Origin: Psilocybe cubensis
Lineage: Eukaryota
Direction: 5' to 3'
DNA: 64,000 bases
NCBI GenBank assembly: GCA_017499595.2
Contig: CM039010.1
Location: forward strand, 806,001 to 870,000
Both the position numbers and the translations under genes were made by a program. Numbering within the stretch: position 1 is the stretch's first letter; each line of letters starts with the position of its first letter. The notes beneath the pieces were generated by a model, which ran no database searches, had not been told where the DNA came from, and worked only from the letters and a program-made list of their open reading frames with translations. Below are positions 24,826-44,435 of this stretch, piece after piece.

Positions 24826-25398
24826 ATCTAGGGTGTGGTGAGTGGACATTTCATTTTATAGTTCATATCGTTGGCCCTCGAGAGGCGCTTATGTTTTTAT
24901 GCCTTTTTGAATCTTCTGTGGACAAGCCTATCTGTAGGATAATTCTAAAATTTAACGGGGGCCACCTTCGATGCGCAAATTTCAGCGCCCCAAATATTGA
25001 CAGATGTGTGCACCAAAGCAACTAATCCAGAAAAGAAGGGTGTACGTATACTTAAGGGTCCACAGATTAGGTAACTCGTTAGTCACTCTGATTTCAATTC
25101 CCCTTCTCTTCTTTTTGCTTTTTTACCCCGCATCTTCGGCGCGCGCCTTCGTTTTTTCGCCCTCCTTTCTCTTTACGACCACCATCTGCCTCTGTCTATC
25201 GTTATCATTGCTTTCGCCTCTTTCCCTTTCTCTGATCTGATTCCTGTTTGATATCTTCACCATCGGATATGATTTCATCGAGTTTTGGGAATTATCCACC
25301 CAGTGATGTGATTTTTTCATCAAGGGTGACTTTTACACAGCAAGGCCACTAATGTTATTTTTACATGGCAGGATCCATCTTTCCCCCGCGCAAAAGCT

Positions 25399-26871
25399 AT
25401 GAGTGATTCCTACGCGAGCCACAGCAACAAAGACGGAAGATACGGCCTCCACTTTTATTACGGTAATTCTTGGGATAACCGTACATCCGAACCGGCAATG
25501 GAATCTGATGTGCAAGTTCCCGCGTGTACGACGACGACGACGAGGACGTCATCGGCAATCGAATGGTCTGCGGATGCCGTCCGAAGAACGTTACCATTCA
25601 ATCAAATCCCTCTACACCGACCCCCCGAGTTCTATGAAGCCTCTATCCAGGAAACGTCTACCCTCGGTGACATCGGACGGCGGTCTGAGAATGGAGTCAG
25701 CGTACTTCCAGAGTCTTACCAGCCTTCATTACGATCAAGTGGCGACCGCGTTACTGAGCGCCATCCGATGTCATATGTGCGATTGTTTACGTAGACTTCG
25801 CTAATTTACCGACTAACGAAATTGGCGTCGTTTATACAGGTATCCCGACTGCCAACTCATGGCGCGCTACCGCATAGCGGATATGTCAGACTTAACCCGC
25901 TTCGATATGCACATCTACCCCTGTATTTACAACAAGCATTACTCTATGAACCAACAGAAGAAGAGCTGGCAGAACGCGCAGTGAGTTGTCTACCCGATTC
26001 GCAACAATTCCGTCTTTTTTGATTTTTGCTGTGTTGGTTTAACAGCACCAGCCTGTACCTCCCGAGAAACTTTCTAAATACTCCGAGCTCTCCCCACATT
26101 TGGAATTTATGCAACGGCTTAAACTCGAAGAAATGATGGAAAAGAAATCCAGAAATTTGGCTCAGTGCACTTCAACGGTAAGCCTTCATAATCTTTTTTG
26201 TCATCAGAGTTTAGTAACGATATGCGCTCAAAGGCAGCAGCAGCAGTTCTTCCATCTAATGCTCCTAGGTCACCAAATGACATCGGAGATGCTATCGCTC
26301 ATCCACGTAGCGTTTCCCAGAGCACCCATGGTACTTCTCACACATCCAACCTGACAGCAACCCCAGCGCCTCTACCCAACTTGCTAATTCCGGATGCTCC
26401 TCCCCCGAAGAAGCGCAGGCGAAGTAAGCAGGCCACTGGTAAAATGGACTCCCCATTAGACGATACAATGGAGGTTGATCAATCTTCCAATCCTGCGACT
26501 GACCTTGGTGGTCTTTTGGGAAATGGGCAGATATCTCCCATTTCAAATTCCTCCGGTGAGATCAAATACATCAAGTTGGACCCTAGGAAAGGAGCACTGG
26601 CATGTACATTCTGCCGGGAGCGTAAGATTTCATGCGGGAGGCCGCCTCCAGGGAGCCCCGACCAAACTTGCAAGTAAGTTTATTACACTCCTCTGCTCCT
26701 ATATTGACATCTCATCTCACTTTCCTTCTGTGCATTTTATGAATCAGTCAGTGTGCTCGTCGCTCGTTCAATTGCGAGTACACCGCTGACTTACCGATTG
26801 GACCCATCTCCAAAAGCACGACCCGACGACGACGCCGATCATCTGCGGGGGGCGCTTCCCCTTCTAAATAA
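25399..26871 (+). CDS. Zn(II)2Cys6 transcription factor with C-terminal cluster
   Basis: ACTFCRERKISCGRPPPGSPDQTC|NQCARRSFNCEY across an intron; NLS PKKRRR; stop at 26869-26871. Confidence 0.8.
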
Positions 26872-28004
26872 TGAAGCAATCTTTTCAGGCATGCAAATTA
26901 AGGTCACCGACTGGGACATCGACAGGTAGTTCGGTCCTCTCCCACTAACCGTGTGCTTCCATTCTCTATCTAAACCAACCAATCAACCATATTTCTACTG
27001 ACTCGCGTCTGTTGAACGTGACTTGGAATTGTCCATTCAACCTTGCCGACATCAAATTTTTCTGCTTTCTCGCTTTCTTGGTGCTCTCTCTGCATTCGTT
27101 TCCTCGTTTTCGGGAGATTTCTCTCTAAATGCTGTGGTTTCTGCTATCGCTGACATCTTGCTGTCATGGGTGTACACCACCTTTTCTACTCTATTCCTCT
27201 GCTATAATCCAAGCCCTGATTATACCTTCTCCTTTAATCACTCTTAATAATGTACATATTCATCGTATCCGACTCTGATTTCCATGTGGTTAGGAATCTA
27301 GTTCTTTGCTCTTACTCGCTCTCCACTTGACAATTTTGTTACATTTGTCCAATATCTAAGTACTCATTAACTTTAAAATGTACTATACACATCTTTAGGG
27401 TTCCTCGACATTTCAGGGATCACTTTTTGGACATCAATACCATCAATATCTTTCAGCATTACGAATGTGAACTTGAACCCATGTTAAACGACCATTGAAT
27501 GTACAATTCAGGTTCCGCGGAGGCTGTCTCTGTTGCATGACTGAGCAACTTCGGGCCGAATTGACGGGTACAGGCAATACACTGCTGGAGGCCATTGATA
27601 TATGCCAAATAAAAACGAATCAGATACACGTTCTGTATATTAACATGTTGTTTTTGTTGACTTTTTTTTCAAGAAATATGGTTCGGAATGCACTTCCGAA
27701 GTATATTTCTCTAAAAATGTCAATAAAAGGCACTCAATCAAACACATAACGTGTATCTAATCTGTTTTTATTTGACATATATGAATGGGTGCCAGCAGTG
27801 ATAGCGCCCCGACTGAACGTTGAACATTAAGACACCAACGGAAAACCACAATTTCATAATCTTGACATAATGCGGCATTCACCATATAGTGAGTTTAGTA
27901 TCAAGCTTACATTTTTTGTGCATATCTACCTCGATAGTATGTCAATCTGTTACTAGAACGTCTATTCAATATCATTGTTAGCAAATCATCTGCTGGGTAT
28001 GCAT

Positions 28005-29247
28005 TTAATTTGTGGTTGGTCTGCTTCTTTCCAATGCACTATGAACGATGGTGGAAATCAATTGGTCGTAATCAATGCCGATGCCTTCGGCAAGCATAGG
28101 AAAGTCAGATAATCCAGGTCGCAATCCTGCGAGGGGGTTGACCTATTGTTGCCAAATGAGTAATCAAAGGTATGAGAATTGATGGTGACGCTTACCTCAA
28201 TGCAGTTGGGAACAGCATTGGCATCTTTCGAATCAAAGCGGATATCCACGCGCCCTCCGTCTCTGCATCCAAGTACTTTCCAGGCCTTGACAGCAACCTC
28301 AGCCGCCCGTTGAGCTACAGGATTGCTTGAAAGGTCCATGTTAACATGTTGTGGATTGGTTCCCGCTCCCGAACGCTTCACGCTATTACTGTATACTTCC
28401 AATTCAAGTAGTTCTGGGTCTTGGTTGTCAACAATAGTGGCCGGGTCAATGGGACAATTTGGGTTGTCTTTCAAGAATACTATCTCTCGTACGCCAATGG
28501 CTCGGGCACTGGAACCTGTCCCAAGGATGCCTACCGTGAACTCACGGCCGCTCAGGAAGCGTTCGATGAGAATAGTCTGTGTCGGATACCGCAGCGAAAG
28601 GTCCTCGACTACTTTTGCAAGTTGTTCGTAATCAGTGACCTTGTTCGCCTGTTGAATGCCAACCCCGCTGCCTTCTGCACTCGGTTTAGCAAATAAAGGA
28701 AATGTTTTTAATGCCTGACTGTGCGGCGAGCTTTGGATCACGGATTCAACAGAAATCTCGTCGGCTTCGGACCATGTATTCCTGGGCGGCACACACGCAT
28801 ATGGCGCGGAAGGTACACCATAATAGTCCCAGACCATCTACATGCATAAAATTCAGTATATACTCGCTGTGCAAGTATAAATGTCAGCCGCACCTTTGTT
28901 TTTGCCTTGTCAAGGCATAACCCAAGCGTCGCCGAATCCGAAAACGTGAATGGAATGTCCCAGGCCTCCAGCAATGCTGGTACCTGAGCCTCTCGCCCCA
29001 CGCTTCCAAATCCTTCACAAATGTTGAACACAATGTCCCAGTCTGGCTTCGATTTAACAAGCACCTTTGTGAGGGCTTTCAGACCACCAACCATCTCAAC
29101 TGTCCCAAGCTTTCGCAAGGACGCTGCAATTCCCTGAATCGTGTCGTCGCCATCGAACTCCGCACATTGTTCAGCAGAATATCCTAGAGCTAGCCATTCT
29201 TCTCGGGAGTCATATGTGAACGCAATTTTAAGGACAGGGGTAGACAT
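28005..29247 (-). CDS. D-alanine--D-alanine ligase-like ATP-grasp protein (about 377 aa, 2 introns)
   Basis: FNICEG..GREAQVPALLE, LGLCLDKAKTK, FPLFAKPSAEGSGVGI, IERFLSGREFTVGILG, LGCRDGGRVDIR, IEVNPLAGL. Introns at 28838-28893 and 28143-28195. Confidence 0.85.
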
Positions 29248-29815
29248 CTTGGCTCCTTGTGCAAGCCTGGATATTGCGGCCGTTTATACCGAAAGATGCT
29301 GGGGTCCAGTGCGACTCGGAGAATAACAGCGGTTCCGTAGTGGCAACCGGAAAAAGGTTCAAAATAAAGCTTAGAGCTTAGAGGTTGAATAAACACGTTA
29401 AAGCGCGCGAATCTGCACTCGATACTACCTGGTTCTAATAGTACATAGCTGTATTTATACTGTAAATATAGGGGTTTCTTAAAGAGGCTGACAAAGTGAA
29501 GGAAAAAAGGGTACATAAACAACCACATAACATGGTGTAATAGGCCGGTTTCAAGCAGCAAGAATGCAGACTAAGGGATTAAAATGAAGAGGAGAAGCGA
29601 AAAAGATACCATTGATTTATTTATAACTATCGATAACAAATTTAAGTAACTACGAGCATCAAAAGAATTATACCTGTATGGATTAAACACGAATAGCTAC
29701 AATATGAGAACACATGAAGGCAATGTTAACGTAGTTTCAAACAGAGTAAAAAATGCAAAACTCACCAACTCGATAGCAAACAGCCAAGCAAGATCAAATG
29801 GATTTACTTTATGTG

Positions 29816-30257
29816 CTATTGGTCAGTCACACCTATCGAAATAATTTCGATTCAAGGTGCGACCTAAGCCGAGGAGCCACGACAAGGCTGCACAAGGGCG
29901 GTTCCCAACTCGGGAGCCACCCTCTCCTCGGAAAAAAAAAATCCCTCTTGAATCGCGTTCCGAATAGAACGCGAATCGAAGAGGTTGTGATCGCCATTAT
30001 CCAGCGATGGGTGGGTCTCCGTCGGAGACCCCTTTGTCGCTCTCTTGCGAGAACAACAGAGCCGGCCATCGATCGCGCTTTGCAACACGAGAGGCCTGAC
30101 CATTACCGCTCGAGCTCCCTTGCCAGCCAAGTCCTGCCCTACCCGGCAGGCTTGACTGGGGAACGGTAGTAGAGGTAGGGGCGATTTGGGGAATGGGGGA
30201 CAATGGATGGGTAGTATATTTTTGGGGGGGAAGGGAGAGGGACTCGATGTTGTATAC
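29816..30257 (-). ncRNA. Unassigned structured RNA, copy 1 (candidate ~440-nt intron)
   Basis: C-rich leader, then 8-9 helices with GNRA loops, a U tract and a terminal hairpin abutting CTGAC-CAATAG. Confidence 0.55.
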
Positions 30258-30561
30258 CTGCTTCTCACTTGGAGAAGGGTTCAACGATCGAGTAGGAGGA
30301 GGATGTGGGAATGTTTTGCATATATTGTATTTTCTTTAGAAAAAGAGTCAGCAGACAAATCATTGAAACATATGATTGACACGTACATTGGTATATTGCA
30401 TTGTGTTTCAAGCATAGCACATAAAATTCTGTGTATAAAGACAGCTAGTCAGTGCTGAATGTAGAATCATAAACAAAGAAGACTCACAAAGGTTTTTGAA
30501 GGCCGGCTGAGTCTGTTGCTCAAACCGGCCGAGGTAGTGACTAACCTTTTTAATTTATGTG

Positions 30562-30967
30562 CTATTGGTCAGTCGCATCCATCGATTTCGATGGATGCAA
30601 CCTAAGCCGAGGAGCCACGACAAGGCTGCACAAGGATGGCTCCCAACGTGGGAGCCACCCTCTCCTCGGAAAAAAATATCCCTCTTGAACCGCGTTCCTT
30701 TCGGAGCGCGGATCGAAGAGGGTTGTGGGTGGGTCTCCGTCGGAGACCCCTTTGTCGTTCTCTTGCGAGAACAACAGTGCCGGCCTTCAATCGCACTTTG
30801 CAACGCGAGAGGCCTGGCCATTACCGCTCGAGCTCCCTTGCCAGCCAAGTCCTGCCCTACCCGGCAGGCTTGACTGGGGAACGGTAGTAGGGGGTAGGGG
30901 CGATTTAGGGAATGGGGGGGCAATGGATGGGTAGTATATTTTTATGGGAGTGGGGAAGGGATTCGAT
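30562..30967 (-). ncRNA. Unassigned structured RNA, copy 2 (one hairpin and the candidate donor deleted)
   Basis: Same helices as the other copies, but lacks the ATCGCTG-loop-TGGCGAT hairpin and the CAG|GTATAC segment. Confidence 0.5.
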
Positions 30968-31223
30968 GTGGGGATATTTTTCATAGTGTGCTTTCTGTAG
31001 ACGGAGGGTCAATAGACGAATCATCAAAACACATATTGACACATACGTTTGTATATTGCATTGTTTTTTGAGCATAGCACATAAAATTCTGCGTATAAAG
31101 GCGGCTAGTCAGCGCTGAATTAGAATCATGAACAATGAAGACTTACAAAGGTTGTTGAAGGCCGGCTGTGACTATTAGTAGTCTAACCGGCCAATAGATT
31201 AACTGACCTTTTCATTTTATGTG

Positions 31224-31659
31224 CTATTGGTCAGTCGCACCCATCGATTTCGACAGGTGCGGCCTAAGCCGAGGCGCCACGACAAGGCTGCACAAGGATG
31301 GCTCCCAACGTGGGAGCCACCCTCTCCTCGGAAAAAAAATCCCTCTTGAACCGGGCTCCTTTCGGAGCACGGATCGAAGAGGTTGTGATCGCCATTATCC
31401 AGCGATGGGTGGGTCTCCGTCGGAGACCCCTTTGTCGCTCTCTTGCGAGAACAACAGAGCCGGCCATCGATCGCGCTTTGCAACACGAGAGGCCTGACCA
31501 TTACCGCTCGAGCTCCCTTGCCAGCCAAGTCCTGCCCTACCCGGCAGGCTTGACTGGGGAACGGTAGAATGGGGGTAGGGGCGATTTGGGGAATGGGGGG
31601 CAATGGATGGGTAGTATATTTTTGGGGGGGAGGGGGAGAAGGGTCTCGATGTTGTATAC
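31224..31659 (-). ncRNA. Unassigned structured RNA, copy 3
   Basis: Complete set of helices, with GCAA and GAAA tetraloops on the minus strand. Confidence 0.55.
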
Positions 31660-31960
31660 CTGCTTCTCGTTAGAGAAGGGTTCAACGATCGACGACGAGG
31701 AGGATGTGGGAGTAGTTTGTATAGTATTTTTTCTGTAGCCAAGGAGTCAATAAACGAATCAGTGAAACGAATGATTTGTGCATACATTTGTATATTGTAT
31801 TGTGTTTCGAGTATAGCACATAAAATTCTGTGTATAAAGTCGGCTAGTCAGCGTTGAATGTAGAATCATGAACGTTAAATACTCACCAAGGTTGTTGAAG
31901 GCCGGCCGAGTCTGTTGCTCTAGCCGGCCAAGAGATTAACTGACCTGTTCATTTTATGTG

Positions 31961-32395
31961 CTATTGGTCAGTCGCGCCCATCGATTTCGATAGGTGCGGC
32001 CTAAGCCGAGGCGCCACGACAAGGCTGCACAAGGATGGCTCCCAACTCGGGAGCCACCCTCTCCTCGGAAAAAAAATCCCTCTTGACCGTGTTCCTTTCG
32101 GAGCACGGATCGAAGAGGTTGTGATCGCTGTTGTCCAGCGATAGGCGAGTCTCCATCAGAGACTCCATTGTCGTTCTCTTGCGAGAACAACAGTGCCGGC
32201 CTACAATCGCGTTTTTCAACGCGAGAGGCCTGGCCATTACCGCTCGAGCTCCCTTGCCAGCCAAGTCCTGCCCTACCCGGCAGGCTTGACTGGGGAACGG
32301 TAGTAGGGGTAGGGGCGATTTGGGGAATGGGGGGCAAATGGATGGGTAGTATATTTTTTTGGGGGGAGGGGGGGAAGCGACTCGATGTTGTATAC
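31961..32395 (-). ncRNA. Unassigned structured RNA, copy 4
   Basis: Carries several substitutions relative to copies 1 and 3, mostly compensatory or pair-preserving. Confidence 0.55.
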
Positions 32396-35029
32396 CTGCT
32401 TCTCGTTAGAGAAGGGTTCAATCATCGATGGTGTGGGGGATGTGGGGATATATTGCATATTATTATTATTTTCTGTTAGTTGAGAGTCAGTATGCGAAGC
32501 GTCGAATGATATCTGAAGTTCACATACTTTGGTATTCTAGAGCGTCGTTCGATCATAGTAAATAGTTATCTGAAAGGAAGTGCTATCGATTAGCGCTGTC
32601 GAGGACATCGGAAAGGAGAGATACTCACTAAAACTTAATGCGCCGGCTGTTATTTCTACTACAGCCGGCTAAAGTATTCGATGGCCCCTTCAACGTGGGG
32701 CCATATATATCTCATCGCAGTCGTGTATTTGAGGCACACAGCAAAAGAAATCTATAAAACGATGGTAGGTCAGATCAAATCTTGGGCACATCGATGAAGA
32801 AGGAAGCACACCTTGACGCACGCATAATGTCTACTTTTGATAGTGTTGGAACCTAGCGACGTGGCGGCATAAAATGAGTATAGTTGTGTGTACGAAAGAA
32901 ATCAAGGACTTACATCTTGAGGCACACGGTTAGCCATATAATTCATTGATGTCTGAACACGATGCGGAATATATTAGCCACGAAAAGCCATCGATAAGAA
33001 CAAGAACTTACTTGACGCTTAGTGGGCCGGCGGGCAGTTGTACCGCGCCGGCCAAAGTGGTCGGAGAGACCACTGACCTCGTCGACGGCATGGAACCGTC
33101 GATCGAGCTTTGGCATCGAGCGTGTATGCTCGATGGCAGCGCCTCACGTCGCCGAAGCGACGGAGACCTTTATCGACACCGCGCTGCCGTTTGGCTGCGC
33201 GATGCCGATAGTACGATCGTTGGTGAGCGATCGTAAAGGCCTGTGTAAAGTGGAGAGTATGTTAGTACGAGTGCCACAACGAGTGGCACAGCGACGCACC
33301 TTTGTTTGCGGCCTGCTGGATGATGATTGAATCAGCGTCCTCTAAGGACGCGATGCAGTCTTCATCGCATAGCAGGCTTTGGGGGTTTGTGGAGAGAATG
33401 AACGCCAGCTGGACGGGGCTTTATACCTGGGGCATGTGCTGGTTCTTCCCAAGTTGTCCCAAGGTGCCACTCGACTTGTGTGTTGTAGATGAGTAAGAAC
33501 GGCACATCCGGCTCCGGTTTATTCACAAATCGTGACATCATGGCATCGTGGACTTCAACTAATTTCCACATCTGGATTTGAAGCTGGACGTATTCAGGAA
33601 AATTTTCCAAAGGACGTGTGCGCCCGAGGCTTCTGCGGATCGATAGCAATCAGCGACAGGTTGATAAAAGGCGATCCCCTTGTTATTGCTTGTCATTAGG
33701 AATAAAAGGGGTTTAGATGGCACTCACGGCTGTTGATAGTGCCTCGTTGTCGATGCACGTCGACACGCGTAGATGGGATTAGAAGACCTTCTTGAAAGAT
33801 ATGTTGTAAAAAAAGAGTCTATCCGCTGAGTCGGGCATCTATGGATATTTGGAGCCTTTTGTGCGGGTTTCAAAATGGATGCCAGTCTGATTGAAGCCAT
33901 ACCGTTTCTTTTATCGTTTGTTTTCGTTGAATTGCAAACCATACCTAGAATTCGAAACAGGTACCCCTTCCAAAATTTTTAAACGGTGTATTGATATTCC
34001 AGTATGGTGACCCACAGTTAGAGGCGAATCTGCTACTGCCGCTTCCCAAATAACCCACCCATGGTCGGGTCGAGGTACGCTGAGTCATTTGACGCAATCT
34101 CTTTATTCGACTTCGGATACAGCCTATCATACACTTCTTTTGACGTATACACGATAGATCACGCTATGCACAATTTATAGCGATTAGATTCGTTATAATC
34201 AGCGTGTAAACTTCAGTGGTCCTCTAGGTCGACGCGTAACTTTACTGCATTGTACGATAATTTACAAGCATTTTCTCGAACACGATGTTCGAACTCACGA
34301 ATAGACTAAACGGTACATATGTGAATGCGCCGGTGCAGCTTGTTGACCTCGTTCACTGACATCCAATATCAATACCTATATCGACCCCTAACGGAGTCTA
34401 AAAATAGCAGAAGGTCATTGTCGGAAAAAAGGAATGCATGAGCTTGGCTATTCAATGTACAATCAAATCTTTCAAGTGTGAATTTACTTCGAAGGTAATC
34501 AAATAACGACAAATTTACCAAAATATTTAGAGGCGGGTCGACTTCTTTCAACTGAAGGATAGTCGATAAAGTACCTGATCGCTACCCAGAACTGGGGATT
34601 GTCAAGTGTAGTAGGTGCTGCTTCGGACACAGTGAAAAATGATCTGGAATGAACGAAGGTGGATGCCGTGATAGATCGGGTATTCATCGTAGGTTTTTCT
34701 GAGGCTTGATGCTTGGAAAGATTGTAAAGTAGCCAACGTCACCGTCCTCTGTCTTATATGTCTTATATTTCAATGTGAAAGGGACTAGACATACTATGAA
34801 GCCACTGCGGATCTCTTTAGTGAACTATATGGTTGTCCCGAGGCCCGATAACCGTGTACAATTGCACACTAGCTTCGTAATCCTGTCAAACATGGCATGC
34901 GCAAGGAAAATGCCATAGACGCTAATTCTGGAGCTTCAAGATCGTATTATCCCGAAAGCTCGGCCTTAAGTTGAGCGGGCGGAAATAGGTGATCCTAGTA
35001 GTATGCCCTGTAGTTGCGATGTGTAGAGT

Positions 35030-36724: not shown

Positions 36725-39700
36725 TCAGCGAGCTGCGAGCCCGAGTCGTTCGACGTGTCCTTGAAAGACGACTCGGGCAAGGGGCTTGGTGAAAATATCA
36801 GCGGTGTTAAGAATACCAGGAATATGTAAAATGGAAAAAGAGTTTGATTCTACGTGGGAGCGAATGAAATGATAACGGATGTCAATGTGTTTTGCTTTTC
36901 CGTGATTGGAGTCGTTTTCGGCGAGTGATTTCGCACCGTTGTTGTCGGTTGAGAGGACGAGTGGTGAAGGACATGGAATGAATATTTGTTTAAAGGCTTG
37001 TTGAAGCCAGATGCCCTCTTGTACGGAGCGAGTGAGCGCGACATATTCGGCTTCGGTGGAGGACAAGGCGATGCAAGTTTGTTTCTTGGAGGACCAGGAG
37101 ATGGGGCCACCTGCCATCGACCACACGAACCCGGAGATTGAAGCACGGTCGTGTTTCTCACCTGCCCAGTCAGCATCAGAGAGGCCCGTTAAAGGGATGT
37201 TGCGATTCTTTCCACCGTAATGGAGTCGAAAGGATTTTGTCCCTTTCAGGTAGCGTAGGACGCGTTTTGCAGCGTTAAAGTGATGAGGTGAAGGATTGGA
37301 GCAGTGTTGGGATAGGAGTTGTACAGCATACGCAATATCGGGTCGAGTGTTCATCTGAAGAAACAGTAGGGAGCCGATGAGGTGTTGGTATGTTCGTTTG
37401 AGGTCGGGAATGTTGTCTAGTGTTGACGATTCGTCCCCAGAACCTAAAGGATTATCTCGATCGAGTGGAGTTTTCACGGGATTACAGTTGGTAAGATCGA
37501 ATTCAGTGAGGAGGGATTCTATGAAAGATTCTTGGTGCAACCACAATTCGCATGTAGCGCGATTGCGTTCGAAGTAGACACCGAGAAAACATCTGACAGG
37601 ACCGAGGTCCTTGATGCCAAAAGCTTTCCCTATCTCGATCTTGAGATGACTGAGGAATTCGCCGCAGTTGGAGGCACCCAGACCATCATCGACGTGCATT
37701 GCGAGAAGGCAGTGAACTCGCTTTCCGTTCCAGATGCGATTGAAGAAGAAGACAGCGTGATCTTGTTCTGAGCGAAGGAAACCAAGGGCTTCAAGGGTTT
37801 TGCGAAGGAGTTGATACCAAATGAGGCTTGCTTGTTTGAGACCGTATAACGACTTCAAGAGCTTCCAGCAATTGCCCAAGATGGAGCTGTAGCCTTTCGG
37901 AAAGCGCATATAAATGACTCGCGCAAGGTCGCCCCACAGGAAAGCACGAGTTGCATCAAAGCACTCGAGTTCCCAGTTGTTGACGGCTGCAAAGACAGCA
38001 ATCATGCGAACTGAGGGTGATTTGACGACAGGTGCGAACACCGCGTCATAATCGACCATGTGCACCTGTGAAAACCCTTGCGCAACCAGTCTTGCACGAT
38101 AAACGAGAGGGCCTCCATCGGGCGGCAATTTAAACTCGAGTACCCAACGATTCCCAATGCAGTGACAGCCTTCCGGAAGGAAAACAATCTCATAAACTCC
38201 CATTTTCTTTAGATCCTCTAATTCCTTCAGCATCACCTTCCGCCACTCCTCCGCATCGGGTCTCTTCATCGCCTCATAGAAATTTGCGGGGGGAATAGAC
38301 ATGTTATATCCCGGTGCTTTTGGATTACGTGCTGTGTCGCTTCGAACAGATAGGAAAGCCGTTTCAAAAGAGCTGTCGACGTCCCGCTGAAGATAATCGG
38401 CGACGTCCAGAGAGGCAACCATGGCTGCCAGATCATCTGTTTTCACAACAGGTTCGTTTCCTTCAACAGCTGGGAACATGTCTGGAATTTCAGCACCAAT
38501 GGCGTCTTTGCAGAGGCATACAAACTCTTCATCTTCCGCCCGAACTTCCTCCACACACATCACCTCCACCTCCGCTAGCAATGCTGCACGCTCTCGGGCT
38601 GCCTGCCGTAGAGCTCGATTTTCCCTGCATTTTTCTAGATGCGCTTTTGCCGCTTCTACCGTTTCTTTCCATCGGACGCCGCCTGAGGTAAGTTTCCGTG
38701 TTTCTCGCAGACTGGCTGCTGGTGGAGGTGCGTGACTCGCCTGTTCAGCTGGGGAGACAGCAGGTTCAGGTGACGAGGGAAGAGAGTCAGTGGATTGCGG
38801 TGAGGCCTGAATGACCGCAGGGTCTGGGGATGCTGTGGGTTCGGATGATGAAGACACGGACTTTGAGTGGCTCGCACGTTGATTACGTTGGGATGACACG
38901 CTATCGTGGACATCCTGTGGGAAAGGGAAAGAAGAGTAGTCCATTTCTTCCTCCGAAATCTGCAGTCGAGCTTTGTATGGTATGTTCTCGTCAAAATAAA
39001 CAGACCCGGAGTCGAAGAAATGATTAGTTGACAGGCAACGTACTCTGTATCCTCTTCCAGAGGGTGGATAACCCATGAAAATGCATTCGACGGATTTTGC
39101 ACCGAGTTTGGATTGAAGATCGAGCGGTACATGCGCGAAACACCTGCACCCCCACACACAAAGGTACGAAATGTTCGGCTTACGCTCTTGGAAAATTTCA
39201 AAAGGAGTGACATCTTTAGGCAGTGAAGAGATCACAGTAAGATTCCATAGGTAGGCGGCGCACAGAGCGGCTTCGCCCCAATACCAGAGTGGAAGTTGAG
39301 CAGCAGTGATCATTGCAAGCATCCGTCCTTGCAGTGTCCTCAAACAACGCTCCATTTTGCCGTTCTTCCAGTGCTCGGCACGAGGAATCACGTCTGCAAT
39401 GACGCCGTCAGCTTCTAATTGACCGAAAAAGGCTTTCGAGGTAAACTCTCCAGCAGGATCAAAACGAAGGACTTTGAGTAATTTGCCAGTCTTGCGTTCC
39501 CAGGCGCGTTTAGTGATGAGATATGCATCCAGCGCTTGTGATTTGTCGGCAAGTAAGTGGCACTTTATGGCGTCGGAGCAATCATCCATGAAGACAATCA
39601 TGTATAACTTTCCGTGTGGGGTCAACACAGGGAAAGGACCACAACCGTCGACGTAGACAATCGCTAGAAGGCAGTCCGCTTTGGGAGTTTTGGAAGAGGG

Positions 39701-41440
39701 AGCGGGGTGCCTGGCATGCTTCCCAATGATGCAAGGTTCGCATCTTTCCATTTTATCTCCTGCAGGCAAGGTAACACCTATTGTGGAGTGCACGAGGCGC
39801 CTTGTTGCAGCTTCCCCGATGTGACCCATGCGATGGTGCCACAGATCAAGGGTTTCTGGGACTTTGGCGTATAATGCAACTTCTGGCATTACAGATTCTG
39901 GCATTAGAGTTCGAGGAAGCGTAGGCAATGGAGGTAAGAACTCGACGTTGAGGAAGAAAAGATTATTGATGATGTCGTTCTTGTAGATAACGCTGTGCGG
40001 ATTTTTGCGAATGAGTGAGAAGACACCATCATCGGAGGCAAAGCCGATTTTGCTGTTCTTCGCAACAATTCGACCTAGCGACAGCAAGTTGAGCGTTGCG
40101 TCAGGTGAATGTAAGCAGTCGTTCAGTTTGACAACAGTGGAGTGAGCATTGAGGGAGACGCGCATATAGCAGGTCCCTCGTGCTTTGGTGCGAAGTACGC
40201 CGGCGTTTGCAGTTACCATATCGCGTGCAGCATCTGGCTCATAGGACCAGAAATAAGAGCGGTCTTTGATTAAGTGCGAAGTAGTGCCTGAATCAATGAT
40301 TGTGTTTGCAAGGGTTGACGCCATGGCAGTGAGATCTAAAGGTGCGTTTGAAGAGACCTCTTCAATGGTTGCACACGACAAGTCACCGAGAAAGTCGTTT
40401 GGGTAGAAAGAGGGCGAGACGTATGTTGACGTCGAAGCAGTTGGCACAACGACAGCAGCGACTTCAGTCGCAGCAGCAGCGGCGACTTCAGCCTTTAATA
40501 TTTTGTCGACGTCTTTTGCTTTCGCTCTTTCCTTCCCTTTTCCCCTTGGGCCTTGGCCCTCCATGCCACCACCTTTCGCAAAACAGTGAGCCGCGTCGTG
40601 AGACCGTAATTTGCAGACTGTGCATGCCACGCCATCCGGATTTTTATCATGTATGCGAACACCTGTTGCTTCATTGACGAGGTTGACGTACTCGGATCCC
40701 GGGCCATTTGTGCGACTGGAAGGATTCCTATAGGCCAAACGGGCACATTCAACTGTCAAACGTGAGATGGTTCTTGTCAACAAAGTGTCAGGAGGATCTG
40801 GATTTGCAGCGCTCTGTCGGGCAATATGATCCTCCATGTTCTGTGTCAGGAGCATTTGAAAATGCTGCCAGGAGCCATGATTTGGCAGGCCGCGAATAAT
40901 GCCATGAACCATTTCGTACTCGGTGTATGGTACTCCCATCTCGATGAGTTTGGATCGACCGCGTTGAAATTCACTGATGTAGTTGTCGAGATCGTTATGA
41001 TCTTTCAGCTTCAACGAGTGCAGGCGATCCTTGATGAGGAATTGACTGGCCGTGTCCTGACGCGCATATAGTAACTTAATTGCAGCCCAGACTTCGCGTG
41101 CGGTTTTGTACTTCTCGTATGGGAGAAGTGACAGGGACACAGGTGAGATTCGGTGTTCTATGAGAGAGCGTGCCTTCATGTCATTAAAACTCCATGCATT
41201 GTAGGCGTCTTCTTGTGCATTGGTTGCACCCTGGAGTGGAACGTGAGGGGCAAGTTGTTGAGCGTCGTGGTGCCTCGGATTTGGCGCTCTGGGATTTCCT
41301 TCGACGTATCCCCATAAATTGTTTGTTCGTAGGAACGTCGTCATTCCGCGACGCCAAGCATCGTAGTATGAAGCTCCAACAAGAAGTTCGATGTCGCCAA
41401 TTTTTATGGCGCTACTTCCGCCAGTAAGAGCAGCGGCCAT
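36725..41440 (-). CDS. Copia gag-pol polyprotein (1571 aa)
   Basis: Gag, CCHC knuckle CTVCKLRSHDAAHC, protease IIDSGTTSH, integrase (WHHRMGH..CEPC, D..D..E), RT (LYGLKQA, HVDD), RNase H (SDADWAG, AEYVAL, DIFTK), in copia order INT-RT-RH. Confidence 0.97.
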   Translation of the reverse strand: MAAALTGGSSAIKIGDIELLVGASYYDAWRRGMTTFLRTNNLWGYVEGNPRAPNPRHHDAQQLAPHVPLQGATNAQEDAYNAWSFNDMKARSLIEHRISPVSLSLLPYEKYKTAREVWAAIKLLYARQDTASQFLIKDRLHSLKLKDHNDLDNYISEFQRGRSKLIEMGVPYTEYEMVHGIIRGLPNHGSWQHFQMLLTQNMEDHIARQSAANPDPPDTLLTRTISRLTVECARLAYRNPSSRTNGPGSEYVNLVNEATGVRIHDKNPDGVACTVCKLRSHDAAHCFAKGGGMEGQGPRGKGKERAKAKDVDKILKAEVAAAAATEVAAVVVPTASTSTYVSPSFYPNDFLGDLSCATIEEVSSNAPLDLTAMASTLANTIIDSGTTSHLIKDRSYFWSYEPDAARDMVTANAGVLRTKARGTCYMRVSLNAHSTVVKLNDCLHSPDATLNLLSLGRIVAKNSKIGFASDDGVFSLIRKNPHSVIYKNDIINNLFFLNVEFLPPLPTLPRTLMPESVMPEVALYAKVPETLDLWHHRMGHIGEAATRRLVHSTIGVTLPAGDKMERCEPCIIGKHARHPAPSSKTPKADCLLAIVYVDGCGPFPVLTPHGKLYMIVFMDDCSDAIKCHLLADKSQALDAYLITKRAWERKTGKLLKVLRFDPAGEFTSKAFFGQLEADGVIADVIPRAEHWKNGKMERCLRTLQGRMLAMITAAQLPLWYWGEAALCAAYLWNLTVISSLPKDVTPFEIFQERKPNISYLCVWGCRCFAHVPLDLQSKLGAKSVECIFMGYPPSGRGYRVRCLSTNHFFDSGSVYFDENIPYKARLQISEEEMDYSSFPFPQDVHDSVSSQRNQRASHSKSVSSSSEPTASPDPAVIQASPQSTDSLPSSPEPAVSPAEQASHAPPPAASLRETRKLTSGGVRWKETVEAAKAHLEKCRENRALRQAARERAALLAEVEVMCVEEVRAEDEEFVCLCKDAIGAEIPDMFPAVEGNEPVVKTDDLAAMVASLDVADYLQRDVDSSFETAFLSVRSDTARNPKAPGYNMSIPPANFYEAMKRPDAEEWRKVMLKELEDLKKMGVYEIVFLPEGCHCIGNRWVLEFKLPPDGGPLVYRARLVAQGFSQVHMVDYDAVFAPVVKSPSVRMIAVFAAVNNWELECFDATRAFLWGDLARVIYMRFPKGYSSILGNCWKLLKSLYGLKQASLIWYQLLRKTLEALGFLRSEQDHAVFFFNRIWNGKRVHCLLAMHVDDGLGASNCGEFLSHLKIEIGKAFGIKDLGPVRCFLGVYFERNRATCELWLHQESFIESLLTEFDLTNCNPVKTPLDRDNPLGSGDESSTLDNIPDLKRTYQHLIGSLLFLQMNTRPDIAYAVQLLSQHCSNPSPHHFNAAKRVLRYLKGTKSFRLHYGGKNRNIPLTGLSDADWAGEKHDRASISGFVWSMAGGPISWSSKKQTCIALSSTEAEYVALTRSVQEGIWLQQAFKQIFIPCPSPLVLSTDNNGAKSLAENDSNHGKAKHIDIRYHFIRSHVESNSFSILHIPGILNTADIFTKPLARVVFQGHVERLGLAAR

Positions 41441-41645
41441 GTTTAGCAGTGACTAAGAAATATCCCAGAGTATGAGATGCAGTGCAGTGAATTTACGCGT
41501 GTTGACCCAGATACGAACCGAGTAGAGACAACGCTCAGTGAGTGATTGACAGTGTGTGTGATTTGGGTTGCTCAAGCTACGGAGAAGACCAGTATGTCTT
41601 CGAAACAGATGTGTCCGCCTTTACGTGAAGGCGGGGCCCATAACC

Positions 41646-44363: not shown

Positions 44364-44435
44364 GCCTTCTTGGCGTAGTGGTAGCGCGTCGCACTTGTAA
44401 TGCGAAGGTCACTCGTTCAATCCGGGTAGGAGGCA
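44364..44435 (+). tRNA. tRNA-Thr (anticodon UGU), intronless
   Basis: Acceptor stem GCCTTCT/AGGAGGC; D arm GCGT-AGTGGTA-GCGC; anticodon arm TCGCA-CTTGTAA-TGCGA; T arm ACTCG-TTCAATC-CGGGT; T-rich run downstream. Confidence 0.95.

Follow-up and report, generated by a model that had tools for sequence, protein, structure and literature searches.

A spliced tandem array of structured RNA modules in Psilocybe cubensis as a candidate lineage-specific long non-coding RNA

What does a tandem array of strongly folding repeats encode on the minus strand of a 64-kb stretch of the Psilocybe cubensis genome (the window, 64,000 nucleotides, analysed here as a whole)? An initial annotation had described the array as four tandem copies of an unassigned ~330-nt structured RNA. 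Aligning the copies bore out their number and arrangement: the four are direct, head-to-tail repeats, and an nhmmer search with a unit profile recovered exactly these four in the window (E 1e-223 to 1e-268). The ~330 nt turned out to be the core only. Spliced contigs show introns, an exon and a leader within the unit, which is therefore larger, at 662-746 bp, with start-to-start distances of 718/680/736 or 738/662/737 bp. Because the repeat period exceeds 500, the array was not detected by TRF. Across the four units intron 1 measures 58-59 nt and intron 2 52-55 nt, and the diverged first leader still keeps lengths of 59/42/55 nt for intron 1, exon 2 and intron 2. The 19-nt tail, which contains CCAAT and an ATAAA motif, is identical in all six pairwise comparisons (Table 1).

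Table 1 Features of the array and its downstream neighbour, in positions of the window.
Feature	Position	Strand	Observation
Whole array: diverged first leader and four tandem units U4, U3, U2, U1 (5'->3' order)	29808..32720	minus	
U4 structured core: hairpin chain, U8 tract, terminal hairpin	31972..32302	minus	
U3 structured core	31235..31566	minus	RNA-like contigs span core without break
U2 structured core, without hairpin 7 (19-nt deletion)	30573..30886	minus	
U1 structured core, longer terminal hairpin, U10 tract	29827..30168	minus	
U3 exon-3 start: A-rich stretch, small hairpin, then C-rich leader	31567..31732	minus	
Counterparts of U3 exon-3 start in other units	32303-32472, 30887-30994, 30169-30333	minus	
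Intron 1, U4>U3 spacer: GTGAGT...CAG, 59 nt	31828..31886	minus	Removal exact in X15 record 11, also X12 loose ends
Intron 1 homologues	32570-32628, 31089-31146, 30429-30487	minus	
Exon 2, 42 nt	31786..31827	minus	
Exon 2 homologues, 42 nt in 4/4 units	32528-32569, 31047-31088, 30387-30428	minus	
Intron 2: GTATGC...CAG, 53 nt	31733..31785	minus	Removed in X12 records 7, 8 and X15 record 11
Intron 2 homologues	32473-32527, 30995-31046, 30334-30386	minus	
Invariant 19-nt tail CTGACCAATAGCACATAAA, 3' of each core	31953..31971; also 31216-31234, 30554-30572, 29808-29826	minus	
14-nt inverted-repeat arms, 31951-31964 with 31813-31826	31813..31964 (span)	minus	
Further arm pairs	31214-31227 with 31074-31087; 12 nt at 30554-30565 with 30414-30425	minus	
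GTCAGT, possible alternative 5' splice site 13 nt past tail	31202..31207	minus	X12 record 5 diverges here
GTGAGT, 5' splice-site-like, in tail after last unit (U1)	29760..29765	minus	Sequence only
D-Ala-D-Ala-ligase-like ATP-grasp gene, downstream neighbour	28058..29247	minus	Identical to P0123 over stretches compared

RNA-like contigs from two runs (X12 and X15) show that the minus strand is, as proposed, the transcribed and spliced one. Both GT-AG spacer introns (59 and 53 nt) are exactly removed, the core stays unspliced, and one core is joined to the next unit. A 302-nt contig (X15 record 11) extends from one core's terminal hairpin across exons 1, 2 and 3 with both introns out at the exact predicted bases; the same splice joints occur in X12 records 7, 8 and 9 and in loose ends. 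Leader and core are unbroken in X12 record 4 (766 nt) and X15 record 10 (760 nt), which then continue for 216-222 nt more. The contigs place the core inside a longer spliced transcript that enters the next unit, and do not show the free-standing RNA of ~330-440 nt first envisaged. X12 record 5 departs from the reference exactly at GTCAGT and continues as exon-2/exon-3-like sequence, a joint that is possibly an alternative 5' splice site or instead a genomic variant copy. Contig depth is 309 and 32 in the two runs, which come from one study, are RNA by predicted library type and consist of assembled contigs without RNA ends, strand or level; contigs tiling across units are no proof of a single four-module molecule.

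The core is a ~315-345-nt chain of eight to nine stable hairpins that is interrupted by a U8-U10 tract; GNRA loops cap three of the hairpins. The RNAalifold consensus of the four cores (123 pairs in 13 helices) contains every hairpin that had been listed. It includes the GCAA and GAAA loops, the pair that copy 4 changed on both sides from G:C to A:U (columns 143/159) and, as helices 12 and 13, the terminal hairpin that varies between copies. The full hairpin set had been ascribed to each unit, but in copy 2 the 19-nt deletion has removed one hairpin from the core. The proposal that the feature belongs to minus-strand RNA agrees with the folding energies of the copy 3 core, at -166.7 kcal/mol (z -6.19 versus shuffles) on that strand and -143.7 kcal/mol (z -4.80) on the plus strand. 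GC-corrected z-scores of 200-nt windows within the cores range from -3.5 to -5.9, and the lowest of 121 windows outside the array is -4.05. Among 485 pair cells in the four cores, 99.0% can pair, a figure that falls to 34-45% once the 3' sides are shifted by 1-3 columns.

Substitutions between copies tend to preserve these pairs. We counted five two-sided changes (shuffles 1.7 +/- 1.0, with 2 of 500 reaching five). The compensatory covariation reported earlier is real, but the signal from four paralogues is small. The consensus derives from the same four sequences used for these counts, and 99 of its 123 pairs are invariant. Of 25 varying pairs, three (166/182, 167/181 and 168/180) were left out because copy 2 is misaligned at its deletion. 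The remaining 22 give 17 kept and 5 broken on the minus strand versus 5 kept and 17 broken on the plus strand, and one-sided changes fit the minus strand only in 14 cases and the plus strand only in two. Substitution rates are similar in paired (0.126) and unpaired (0.149) columns. The copies are mosaic, with U4 like U2 and U3 like U1 in the 5' half and another arrangement in the 3' half; the units thus exchange sequence, and the four paralogues are not independent. A fifth, expressed variant under the same species label keeps the pair at 16 of 21 changed paired positions and breaks it at five, and its private changes in pairs keep five of nine and break four, among the 33 of its 46 differences that are listed, so that pairing partners may be missing from these counts. 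Between units the core is 89-94% identical and diverges more slowly than the introns, which are 83-88% (intron 1) and 70-77% (intron 2) identical among the three internal units.

We tentatively read the array as a lineage-specific, spliced, multi-module structured long non-coding RNA (lncRNA) of Psilocybe cubensis. The earlier view that it belongs to no known RNA family held up in Rfam 15, where no family reached its gathering score and just three sub-threshold, chance-level matches appeared at E<=10. The best snoRNA models, matching the opposite strand, reached 23.1 and 18.8 bits where 45 and 65 are required; hammerhead, twister, HDV-like and other ribozyme models gave nothing at E<=10, and neither TPP nor other riboswitch models matched. 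The familiar motifs of a hammerhead core, C box, Sm site and telomerase template were absent from the four units on both strands, as was CUGANGA. Related sequences were found in five studies, in organisms A-E only: 75 contigs from one relative's run (X8) match one unit, within 861 bases, at 80-100% identity, and three contigs from another (X10) match at 90-95%.

This narrow range and wealth of variants also suit the main rival, which we consider doubtful but worth serious weight: a structured satellite that is transcribed, or a non-autonomous mobile repeat of, say, retroelement or rolling-circle origin. Its RNA or ssDNA fold would serve the repeat's propagation or be merely inherited, and its splicing would come from chance good signals. 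The fifth variant, a Copia polyprotein ORF 4 kb from the array and a two-unit higher-order pattern (family D3, spacing 1399 bp, together with the variant mosaic) point the same way. However, the window holds a single locus of the family, and the unit is unlike the neighbouring Copia region. The sole terminal inverted repeat consists of the 14-nt arms, which are internal to the unit, and no flanking duplication beside them was seen on reading the sequence. The ribozyme and hammerhead searches likewise speak against this origin, as does the excess of one-sided changes that favour pairing on the transcribed strand, and exon and intron lengths held even in the diverged first leader look like maintained gene architecture.

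An unlikely alternative is a polycistronic precursor, cut by an RNase III-type enzyme at hairpins between units or at the alternative splice site, whose functional products would be either monomers of ~450-500 nt, each a leader with its core, or small RNAs derived from the linker hairpin. The tail pairs over 14 nt with the first part of exon 2 in the next unit, so that removing intron 1 closes a ~95-nt hairpin. Once spliced, the three internal linkers each form a long hairpin (z -6.1 to -8.0) with a perfect 14-bp basal stem and 4-7 and 8-11 more pairs. This stem, the invariant tail as one of its arms and the departure of X12 record 5 just past that tail would all fit a cutting site. Against this, RNA ends are not visible in the contigs, the first unit is without inverted-repeat arms (linker z -3.2), and the apical loops, by reading, are not of the AGNN type carried by yeast Rnt1 substrates.

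Protein coding at the array is unlikely, and we find it very improbable that the locus is a young orphan gene, JR316_0012991, whose product would be a repeat protein rich in Pro, Ser and Gly, translated in frame +2 through successive units. The initial annotation held that ORFs keep no common frame between copies, which is true of the ATG-ORF of 78-93 aa (open in 4/4 copies, shifting frame at indels, pN/pS 1.37) but less so of frame +2, with pN/pS 0.27 over 33 codons and a phase bias of 3/12/5 (p 0.035; 12 of 20 variable columns at the third position). Exon 2 preserves frame and carries an in-frame ATG in U2 and U1, the units that two P. cubensis annotations join into a 'hypothetical protein' (P0121, 174 aa; P0122, 188 aa). 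Yet these models need an intron beginning in a hairpin loop, a joint seen in none of the aligned contigs. Frame +2 stops at three different places over the four copies, no ATG opens it in U3 or U4, and indels in the C-rich leader and U tract change frames between copies. Three-base periodicity is weak, appearing in one of seven testable gap-free blocks (two more have too few variable columns). No Pfam family matched, and protein searches of 5.8e9 and 1.84e9 sequences returned only the species' own gene model and two low-complexity repeat proteins.

We give little credence to a neutral origin by tandem duplication of a GC-rich segment full of palindromes, in which gene conversion, transition bias and the folding program's own choice of structure would create the pairing pattern. 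The shared source of structure and pair counts, the many unvarying pairs and the mosaic copies allow for it, but the cores are more alike than intron 2, one-sided changes follow the transcribed strand, RNA appears in both runs, and the folding z-scores are extreme against both shuffles and the rest of the window. Hardest to credit is a cis-acting leader or upstream regulator of the ligase-like gene, a riboswitch-like or splicing-coupled element in four copies: array and gene share a strand, the gene's ATG follows the last tail by about 560 bp, GTGAGT is retained in the tail after U1, and a 94%-identical ligase paralogue on the same 2.3-Mb contig, with the fifth array variant, hints that array and ligase may have duplicated together, but an AATAAA at ~29611-29625 and the gene's own TATAAATA near 29455 intervene and suggest separate termination and initiation, riboswitch models are without match, independent hairpins strung over 330 nt do not resemble a ligand pocket, and no contig is placed on the array-gene junction.

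As a structured lncRNA, the array would be a non-coding RNA gene or gene array whose minus-strand transcript is processed by the spliceosome. Each unit would supply two mini-introns around the 42-nt exon, an A/C-rich leader unable to pair with itself, the core and the 19-nt tail. The exon-3 start folds more weakly on the minus strand than its GC content predicts (z +1.9 to +4.0). Loss of intron 1 would build the inter-module hairpin from the tail and the next exon 2. If all eight mini-introns were spliced out, the mature RNA would measure about 2.4 kb, and it may be further cut to monomers at these hairpins. We infer that the RNA is non-coding and joins four modules in one molecule; its putative function, in trans, is as a multivalent protein-binding scaffold or decoy, with a single-stranded C-rich platform, folded hairpins and a U tract repeated four times.

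Several known systems share parts of this design. Fungal introner-like elements are multi-copy, unusually stable introns, and the array core is likewise multi-copy, strongly folding and bounded on the spliced strand by a GT (CAG|GTATAC) and a branch-point-like CTGAC followed by AATAG. Unlike introners, the core is kept in the 760-766-nt RNA-like contigs, no aligned contig joins across it, its 5' site departs from the fungal consensus, and its copies lie in tandem at one locus instead of in unrelated genes. Ribozyme-bearing satellites and retrozymes also have tandem units of a few hundred nucleotides, multimeric transcripts and highly paired RNA, but at E<=10 no ribozyme model matched the array, and CUGANGA is absent from its units. 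The fungal TPP riboswitch controls alternative splicing; the array, too, sets structured RNA beside possible alternative 5' splice sites and ahead of an enzyme gene, but it matches no TPP model, comprises four 330-nt copies, is multi-copy in relatives and precedes a gene that seems to have its own promoter signal. Fungal polycistronic snoRNA clusters and host genes similarly carry several structured RNAs in one spliced precursor, with inter-unit hairpins as possible cut guides, whereas the array has no C/D or H/ACA boxes, its structured part is exonic rather than intronic, and its four units are the same RNA. Mammalian NORAD is a multivalent Pol II repeat-module lncRNA whose modules of several hundred nucleotides each bring together a stem-loop, a U-rich stretch and protein-binding motifs in single-stranded RNA. 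The array has no identified PUF or other known motif, and protein binding here is putative; its modules are far more structured, are parted by two spliceosomal mini-introns and occur in a single mushroom genus. Like NORAD, it consists of tandemly duplicated modules of several hundred nucleotides, each with a single-stranded part, a U tract and hairpins.

This Psilocybe cubensis locus expresses a spliced RNA made of tandem, strongly structured units; it belongs to no Rfam family and is probably non-coding. A repeat search and a profile search placed four head-to-tail units on the minus strand at 29808-32720, here called U4, U3, U2 and U1 in 5' to 3' order, with start-to-start distances of 718/680/736 and 738/662/737 bp in the repeat families. 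The unit profile matches exactly four times within the 64-kb window (E 1e-223 to 1e-268), which confirms the tandem four-copy array proposed in the initial annotation; the results below extend it. Tandem Repeats Finder, run on the window, did not report the array because its period exceeds 500 bp. We derived the plan of a unit from a whole-unit alignment and the location of splice signals, and the layout is the same in all four. The exons and introns in the first unit's leader are 46-63% identical to those of the other units, with their lengths unchanged. Upstream, at 33079-32938 on the minus strand, lies a weak spacer-like match of the profile's exon-1/intron-1 part (E 0.006), with GTAAGT at 32913; this could be a decayed additional spacer, or the array transcript could have more exons upstream.

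Features of the repeat unit and of its surroundings in the window
Feature	Position	Strand	Remarks
Exon-1-like stretch	each unit	minus	contains GGCCGGC hairpin
Intron 1	each unit	minus	59/58/59/59 nt in the four units; GTRAGT...CAG
Exon 2	each unit	minus	exactly 42 nt in 4/4 units
Intron 2	each unit	minus	55/53/52/53 nt in the four units
Exon-3 start	each unit, 3' of intron 2		A-rich, with small hairpin
C-rich leader	each unit, between exon-3 start and core
Structured core	each unit	minus	331, 332, 314, 342 nt in the four units
Tail	each unit, 3' of core		19 nt, invariant; CTGACCAATAGCACATAAA
ORF within 25330-27750	26192-26677	plus	CxxCxxxKxxC motif (ACTFCRERKISCGRPP); convergent with ATP-grasp gene
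D-Ala-D-Ala-ligase-like ATP-grasp gene	ORFs 28058-29283		PF07478, E 4e-20
TATAAATA	near 29455		between array and ATP-grasp gene; sequence reading
AATAAA	near 29611-29625		between array and ATP-grasp gene; sequence reading
Intron-like stretch	33241-33300	minus	GTGCGT...CTAAC...CAG; upstream of array
95-aa ORF	33362-33649	minus	no Pfam family; upstream of array
Ty1/Copia-type polyprotein	36725-41452	minus	uninterrupted 1575-aa ORF, 4 kb upstream of array
tRNA gene	44364-44435	plus	sole Rfam match in 64 kb, 62.8 bits

Evidence of expression comes from contigs of two sequencing runs, X12 and X15 (~18-20 million contig letters each, one study), which carry the same species label as the best-matching DNA runs. 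Among the runs listed as containing the unit, none is registered as RNA. We compared them, together with DNA runs of two relatives (X8 and X10), over window positions 31150-32010; some parts of the unit are uncovered in X12, X15 and X10. X12 and X15 were accepted as RNA because GT-AG removal is exact; the alternative origin of their spliced contigs would be processed DNA copies. X15 record 11 (302 nt) begins within the U4 core's terminal hairpin, 9 nt upstream of 31991, runs to 31888, continues over 31827-31786 and then follows the leader down to 31588. What it skips is exactly 31886-31828 and 31785-31733, two GT...AG introns of the minus strand, on which the initial annotation had placed the local splice signals. 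The first joint differs by 1 base, as in other copies, and the second has a U1-like exon-3 start. The intron-2 joint is also found in X12 records 7 and 8, and the intron-1 joint in X12 record 9 and in two loose ends.

Two further contigs, X12 record 4 (766 nt, contig depth 309) and X15 record 10 (760 nt, depth 32), are unbroken over 31692-31182. They span the exon-3 start, the leader, the entire core and the tail, and extend 31 nt upstream and 216-222 nt downstream into next-unit-like sequence. X12 record 5 departs from the reference at 31208, directly before GTCAGT, and passes into exon-2/exon-3-like sequence, which would be explained by a variant copy or by use of an alternative 5' splice site. 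The core also has intron-like bounds, CAG/GTATAC at 31659 and CTGAC..AATAG at 31224, that were not seen in use because no contig joins across the core: a joint across 31659..31224 is absent from the contigs of all four runs, among which a rare spliced form could escape. As X12 record 4 and X15 record 10 keep the core, we rejected an introner-like element; a literature search on introners in Basidiomycota found no papers. Neither RNA ends nor strand nor levels can be read from the contigs, and their tiling is no proof of a single four-module molecule. Within this one study, the array has the attributes of a spliced multi-module lncRNA, being transcribed, spliced and composed of repeated modules with no conserved ORF.

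Known families offer no home for the array. At the gathering score, Rfam 15 matched nothing in the window besides the tRNA gene, in agreement with the earlier statement that the array belongs to no known RNA family. Relaxing the scan of 29300-33100 to E<=10 gave three sub-threshold hits on the opposite strand, the best of them (23.1 bits versus 45) in a spacer. Hammerhead-type satellites and retrozymes share a conserved catalytic core, CUGANGA ... GAAA; snoRNAs have box C (RUGAUGA) and box D, or H and ACA boxes at fixed distances from hairpins; Sm-class snRNAs have an Sm site, RAU(3+)GR, and telomerase RNA has a template complementary to the telomere repeat. Scans with these motifs found no CUGANGA, RUGAUGA, Sm site or telomere-repeat template in the four units on either strand. 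The tail has an ACA 11 nt from the hairpin base, as read from the sequence, and the units have a U8-U10 tract followed by CC. On these motifs, and for snoRNAs also on the distance rule, we rejected a hammerhead-type satellite or retrozyme, a C/D or H/ACA snoRNA cluster, an Sm-class snRNA and a telomerase RNA. The initial annotation had reported no diagnostic snRNA, snoRNA or ribozyme motifs, and this stands for the Sm site, box C and the hammerhead core on both strands.

Other searches were equally unproductive. A metagenome scan with the long-hairpin pattern returned three loci, all chance matches in prokaryote-like coding sequence; scans of viral collections with 20-21-nt core motifs gave 0 matches; and a sigma-70 promoter/terminator scan, whose model is not relevant to fungi, yielded nothing useful. 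An LTR or primer-binding-site reading, a MITE reading of the 14-nt arms and a tRNA-like 3' domain were rejected on sequence grounds. An IRES ahead of an ORF was rejected because there is no conserved downstream ORF.

The units have diverged unevenly. Between units the tail is 100% identical, the core 89-94% and the C-rich leader 84-91%. When only the three internal units are compared, exon 2 is 88-90% identical, intron 1 83-88%, exon 1 76-85% and intron 2 70-77%. The copies have a mosaic make-up: over the 5' half of the core U4 is similar to U2 and U3 to U1, and the 3' half groups them differently, so between-unit identity is partly due to conversion. A fifth variant of the unit is represented by the abundant RNA contig: among the 33 of 46 differences listed, 15 differences from U3 are absent from U1, U2 and U4. 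In the relative X8, 75 contigs fall on 861 bases, with 17, 20, 22 and 16 in the identity bands 99+, 95-99, 90-95 and <90%, and X10 has three contigs at 90-95% identity. Within the 64-kb window the unit family has one locus. With copies beyond the four on one side, and this single locus and the missing hammerhead core on the other, we regard it as unlikely, though to be taken seriously, that the array is a structured satellite or a mobile repeat that is transcribed.

Removal of intron 1 changes what the spacers can form. A 14-nt part of the invariant tail pairs without mismatch with the start of exon 2 in the following unit, and when intron 1 was removed in silico, exons 1 and 2 gave a ~95-nt hairpin at the three internal spacers (z -6.1, -8.0 and -6.3). 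From base to apex, this linker hairpin comprises 12-14 basal pairs, a middle helix of 4-7 pairs and the GGCCGGC stem. The first unit's leader is without the complementary arms and has a z of -3.2. A precursor that is cut into monomers or small RNAs would be compatible with such hairpins between modules; we consider it improbable.

The fold of the core is itself strong. The U3 core (31235-31566) has a minimum free energy of -166.7 kcal/mol versus -129.2 +/- 6.1 in 100 dinucleotide shuffles (z -6.19), and its opposite strand reaches -143.7 kcal/mol (z -4.80). After GC correction, 200-nt windows inside the cores have z -3.5 to -5.9 on the minus strand; outside the array the most extreme of 121 such windows, also on the minus strand, has -4.05. 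C-rich leaders fold below GC expectation (z +1.9 to +4.0). One plus-strand window outside the array has a GC-corrected z of -3.80.

An RNAalifold consensus of the four full cores has 13 helices with 123 pairs in all, and no hairpin named in the initial annotation is missing from it. In this structure, predicted from the same four sequences in which the pairs were then counted, standard pairs occupy 99.0% of 485 cells, versus 34-45% with 3' partners shifted by 1-3 columns; 99 of the 123 pairs are invariant, and both sides change at 5 pairs (shuffles 1.7 +/- 1.0, with five reached in 2/500). From the 25 varying pairs listed we left out 166/182, 167/181 and 168/180, because they reflect only a misaligned U2 deletion. 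For the remaining 22, the minus-strand reading keeps 17 and breaks a cell in 5, and the plus-strand reading keeps 5 and breaks 17. One-sided changes fit the minus strand only in 14 cases and the plus strand only in 2 and, with the lower z of the minus-strand core, these bear out the proposed pairing of a minus-strand RNA. The fifth variant, again among the 33 of 46 differences listed, changes 21 paired positions, of which 16 keep the minus-strand pair and 5 break it; its private changes at 9 paired positions keep 5 and break 4, with partners possibly among the remaining differences. Substitution rates are similar in paired (0.126) and unpaired (0.149) columns. Weighing the many invariant pairs against the strand balance of the one-sided changes and the extreme z-scores, we give neutral duplication little chance.

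Public annotation reads the locus as protein. It places 'hypothetical proteins' here, P0121 (174 aa) and P0122 (188 aa), which join U2 and U1 in frame +2, and an orphan protein-coding gene (annotated JR316_0012991) would also draw on a pN/pS of 0.27 over 33 codons in that frame. However, the four copies end frame +2 at three different points, and in U3 and U4 no ATG leads into this frame. All four cores contain an open ATG-ORF of 78-93 aa, with its frame changing at the 19-nt deletion and the U tract; its pN/pS is 1.37 over 33 shared codons, and its second positions, which are the third positions of frame +2, hold 12 of 20 variable columns. By codon phase these columns divide 3/12/5 (p 0.035; A3 columns 429-594, for example window 31566-31401), which is a further coding hint; of the seven gap-free blocks that could be tested, one shows periodicity, and two more had too few variable columns. 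The bias is present although no frame is kept across all copies. Array ORFs match no Pfam family, and a word-based search of 5.8e9 proteins found P0121 as sole match. A phmmer search of 1.84e9 representatives with the 155-aa frame +2 ORF returned the P. cubensis model itself and two repeat proteins (1802 and 1939 aa), which we rejected as homologues because they match only a Gly/Ser-rich stretch. With no single start-codon frame kept in all copies and no homologue beyond the P. cubensis model, we set aside membership among protein-coding genes, and an orphan gene seems very unlikely. The earlier claim that the ORFs are not conserved in frame is mostly right: frames and stops differ between copies, though the ATG-ORF is open in all four and frame +2 has a low pN/pS.

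The ATP-grasp product is identical to P. cubensis protein P0123 over the compared stretches. As read from the sequence, AATAAA and TATAAATA suggest that the array and this gene are separate transcription units, and a cis-regulatory leader of the ATP-grasp gene, for which adjacency would speak, is hardly credible. P0123 has a D-Ala-D-Ala-ligase-like paralogue, P0001, which is 94% identical, lies on the same 2.3-Mb contig and is separated from it by ~131 protein accession numbers; this second paralogue could have the expressed fifth variant as its neighbour. The ORF at 26192-26677 resembles, we presume, a fungal Zn2Cys6 transcription factor. Another gene may end close to the array, near 33241-33649. 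By eye, the Copia-type ORF has gag-like, integrase-like and reverse-transcriptase-like stretches.

We tentatively favour a lineage-specific multi-module lncRNA working as a multivalent RNA-protein scaffold, a function that we infer. If the fold is functional, the locus would open a way to study RNA-based regulation in a biotechnologically interesting genus, and the public gene model calling it a protein would be corrected. Judged by titles and abstract openings, none of the Psilocybe papers retrieved dealt with non-coding RNA or a tandem repeat of the genus, and a search on Agaricomycete tandem lncRNAs brought up unrelated papers only. A 2021 screen for fungal structured RNAs covered 1371 genomes, Ascomycota only (PMC8216456), and a 2017 screen does not mention Basidiomycota (PMC5640933). 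These systematic screens appear to omit mushrooms, which makes the locus a concrete example of a large structured RNA in an Agaricomycete, one that is expressed and can readily be tested. Unusually, every repeat has spliceosomal mini-introns, and one hairpin exists only after splicing. It is doubtful, but conceivable, that the core represents a new fungal class of structured RNA, RNP-forming or catalytic, released in multiple copies from a spliced polycistronic precursor, with mini-intron removal creating the inter-module hairpin that directs release, and conserved across Psilocybe and perhaps beyond; such a biogenesis route would differ from those described for any RNA family.
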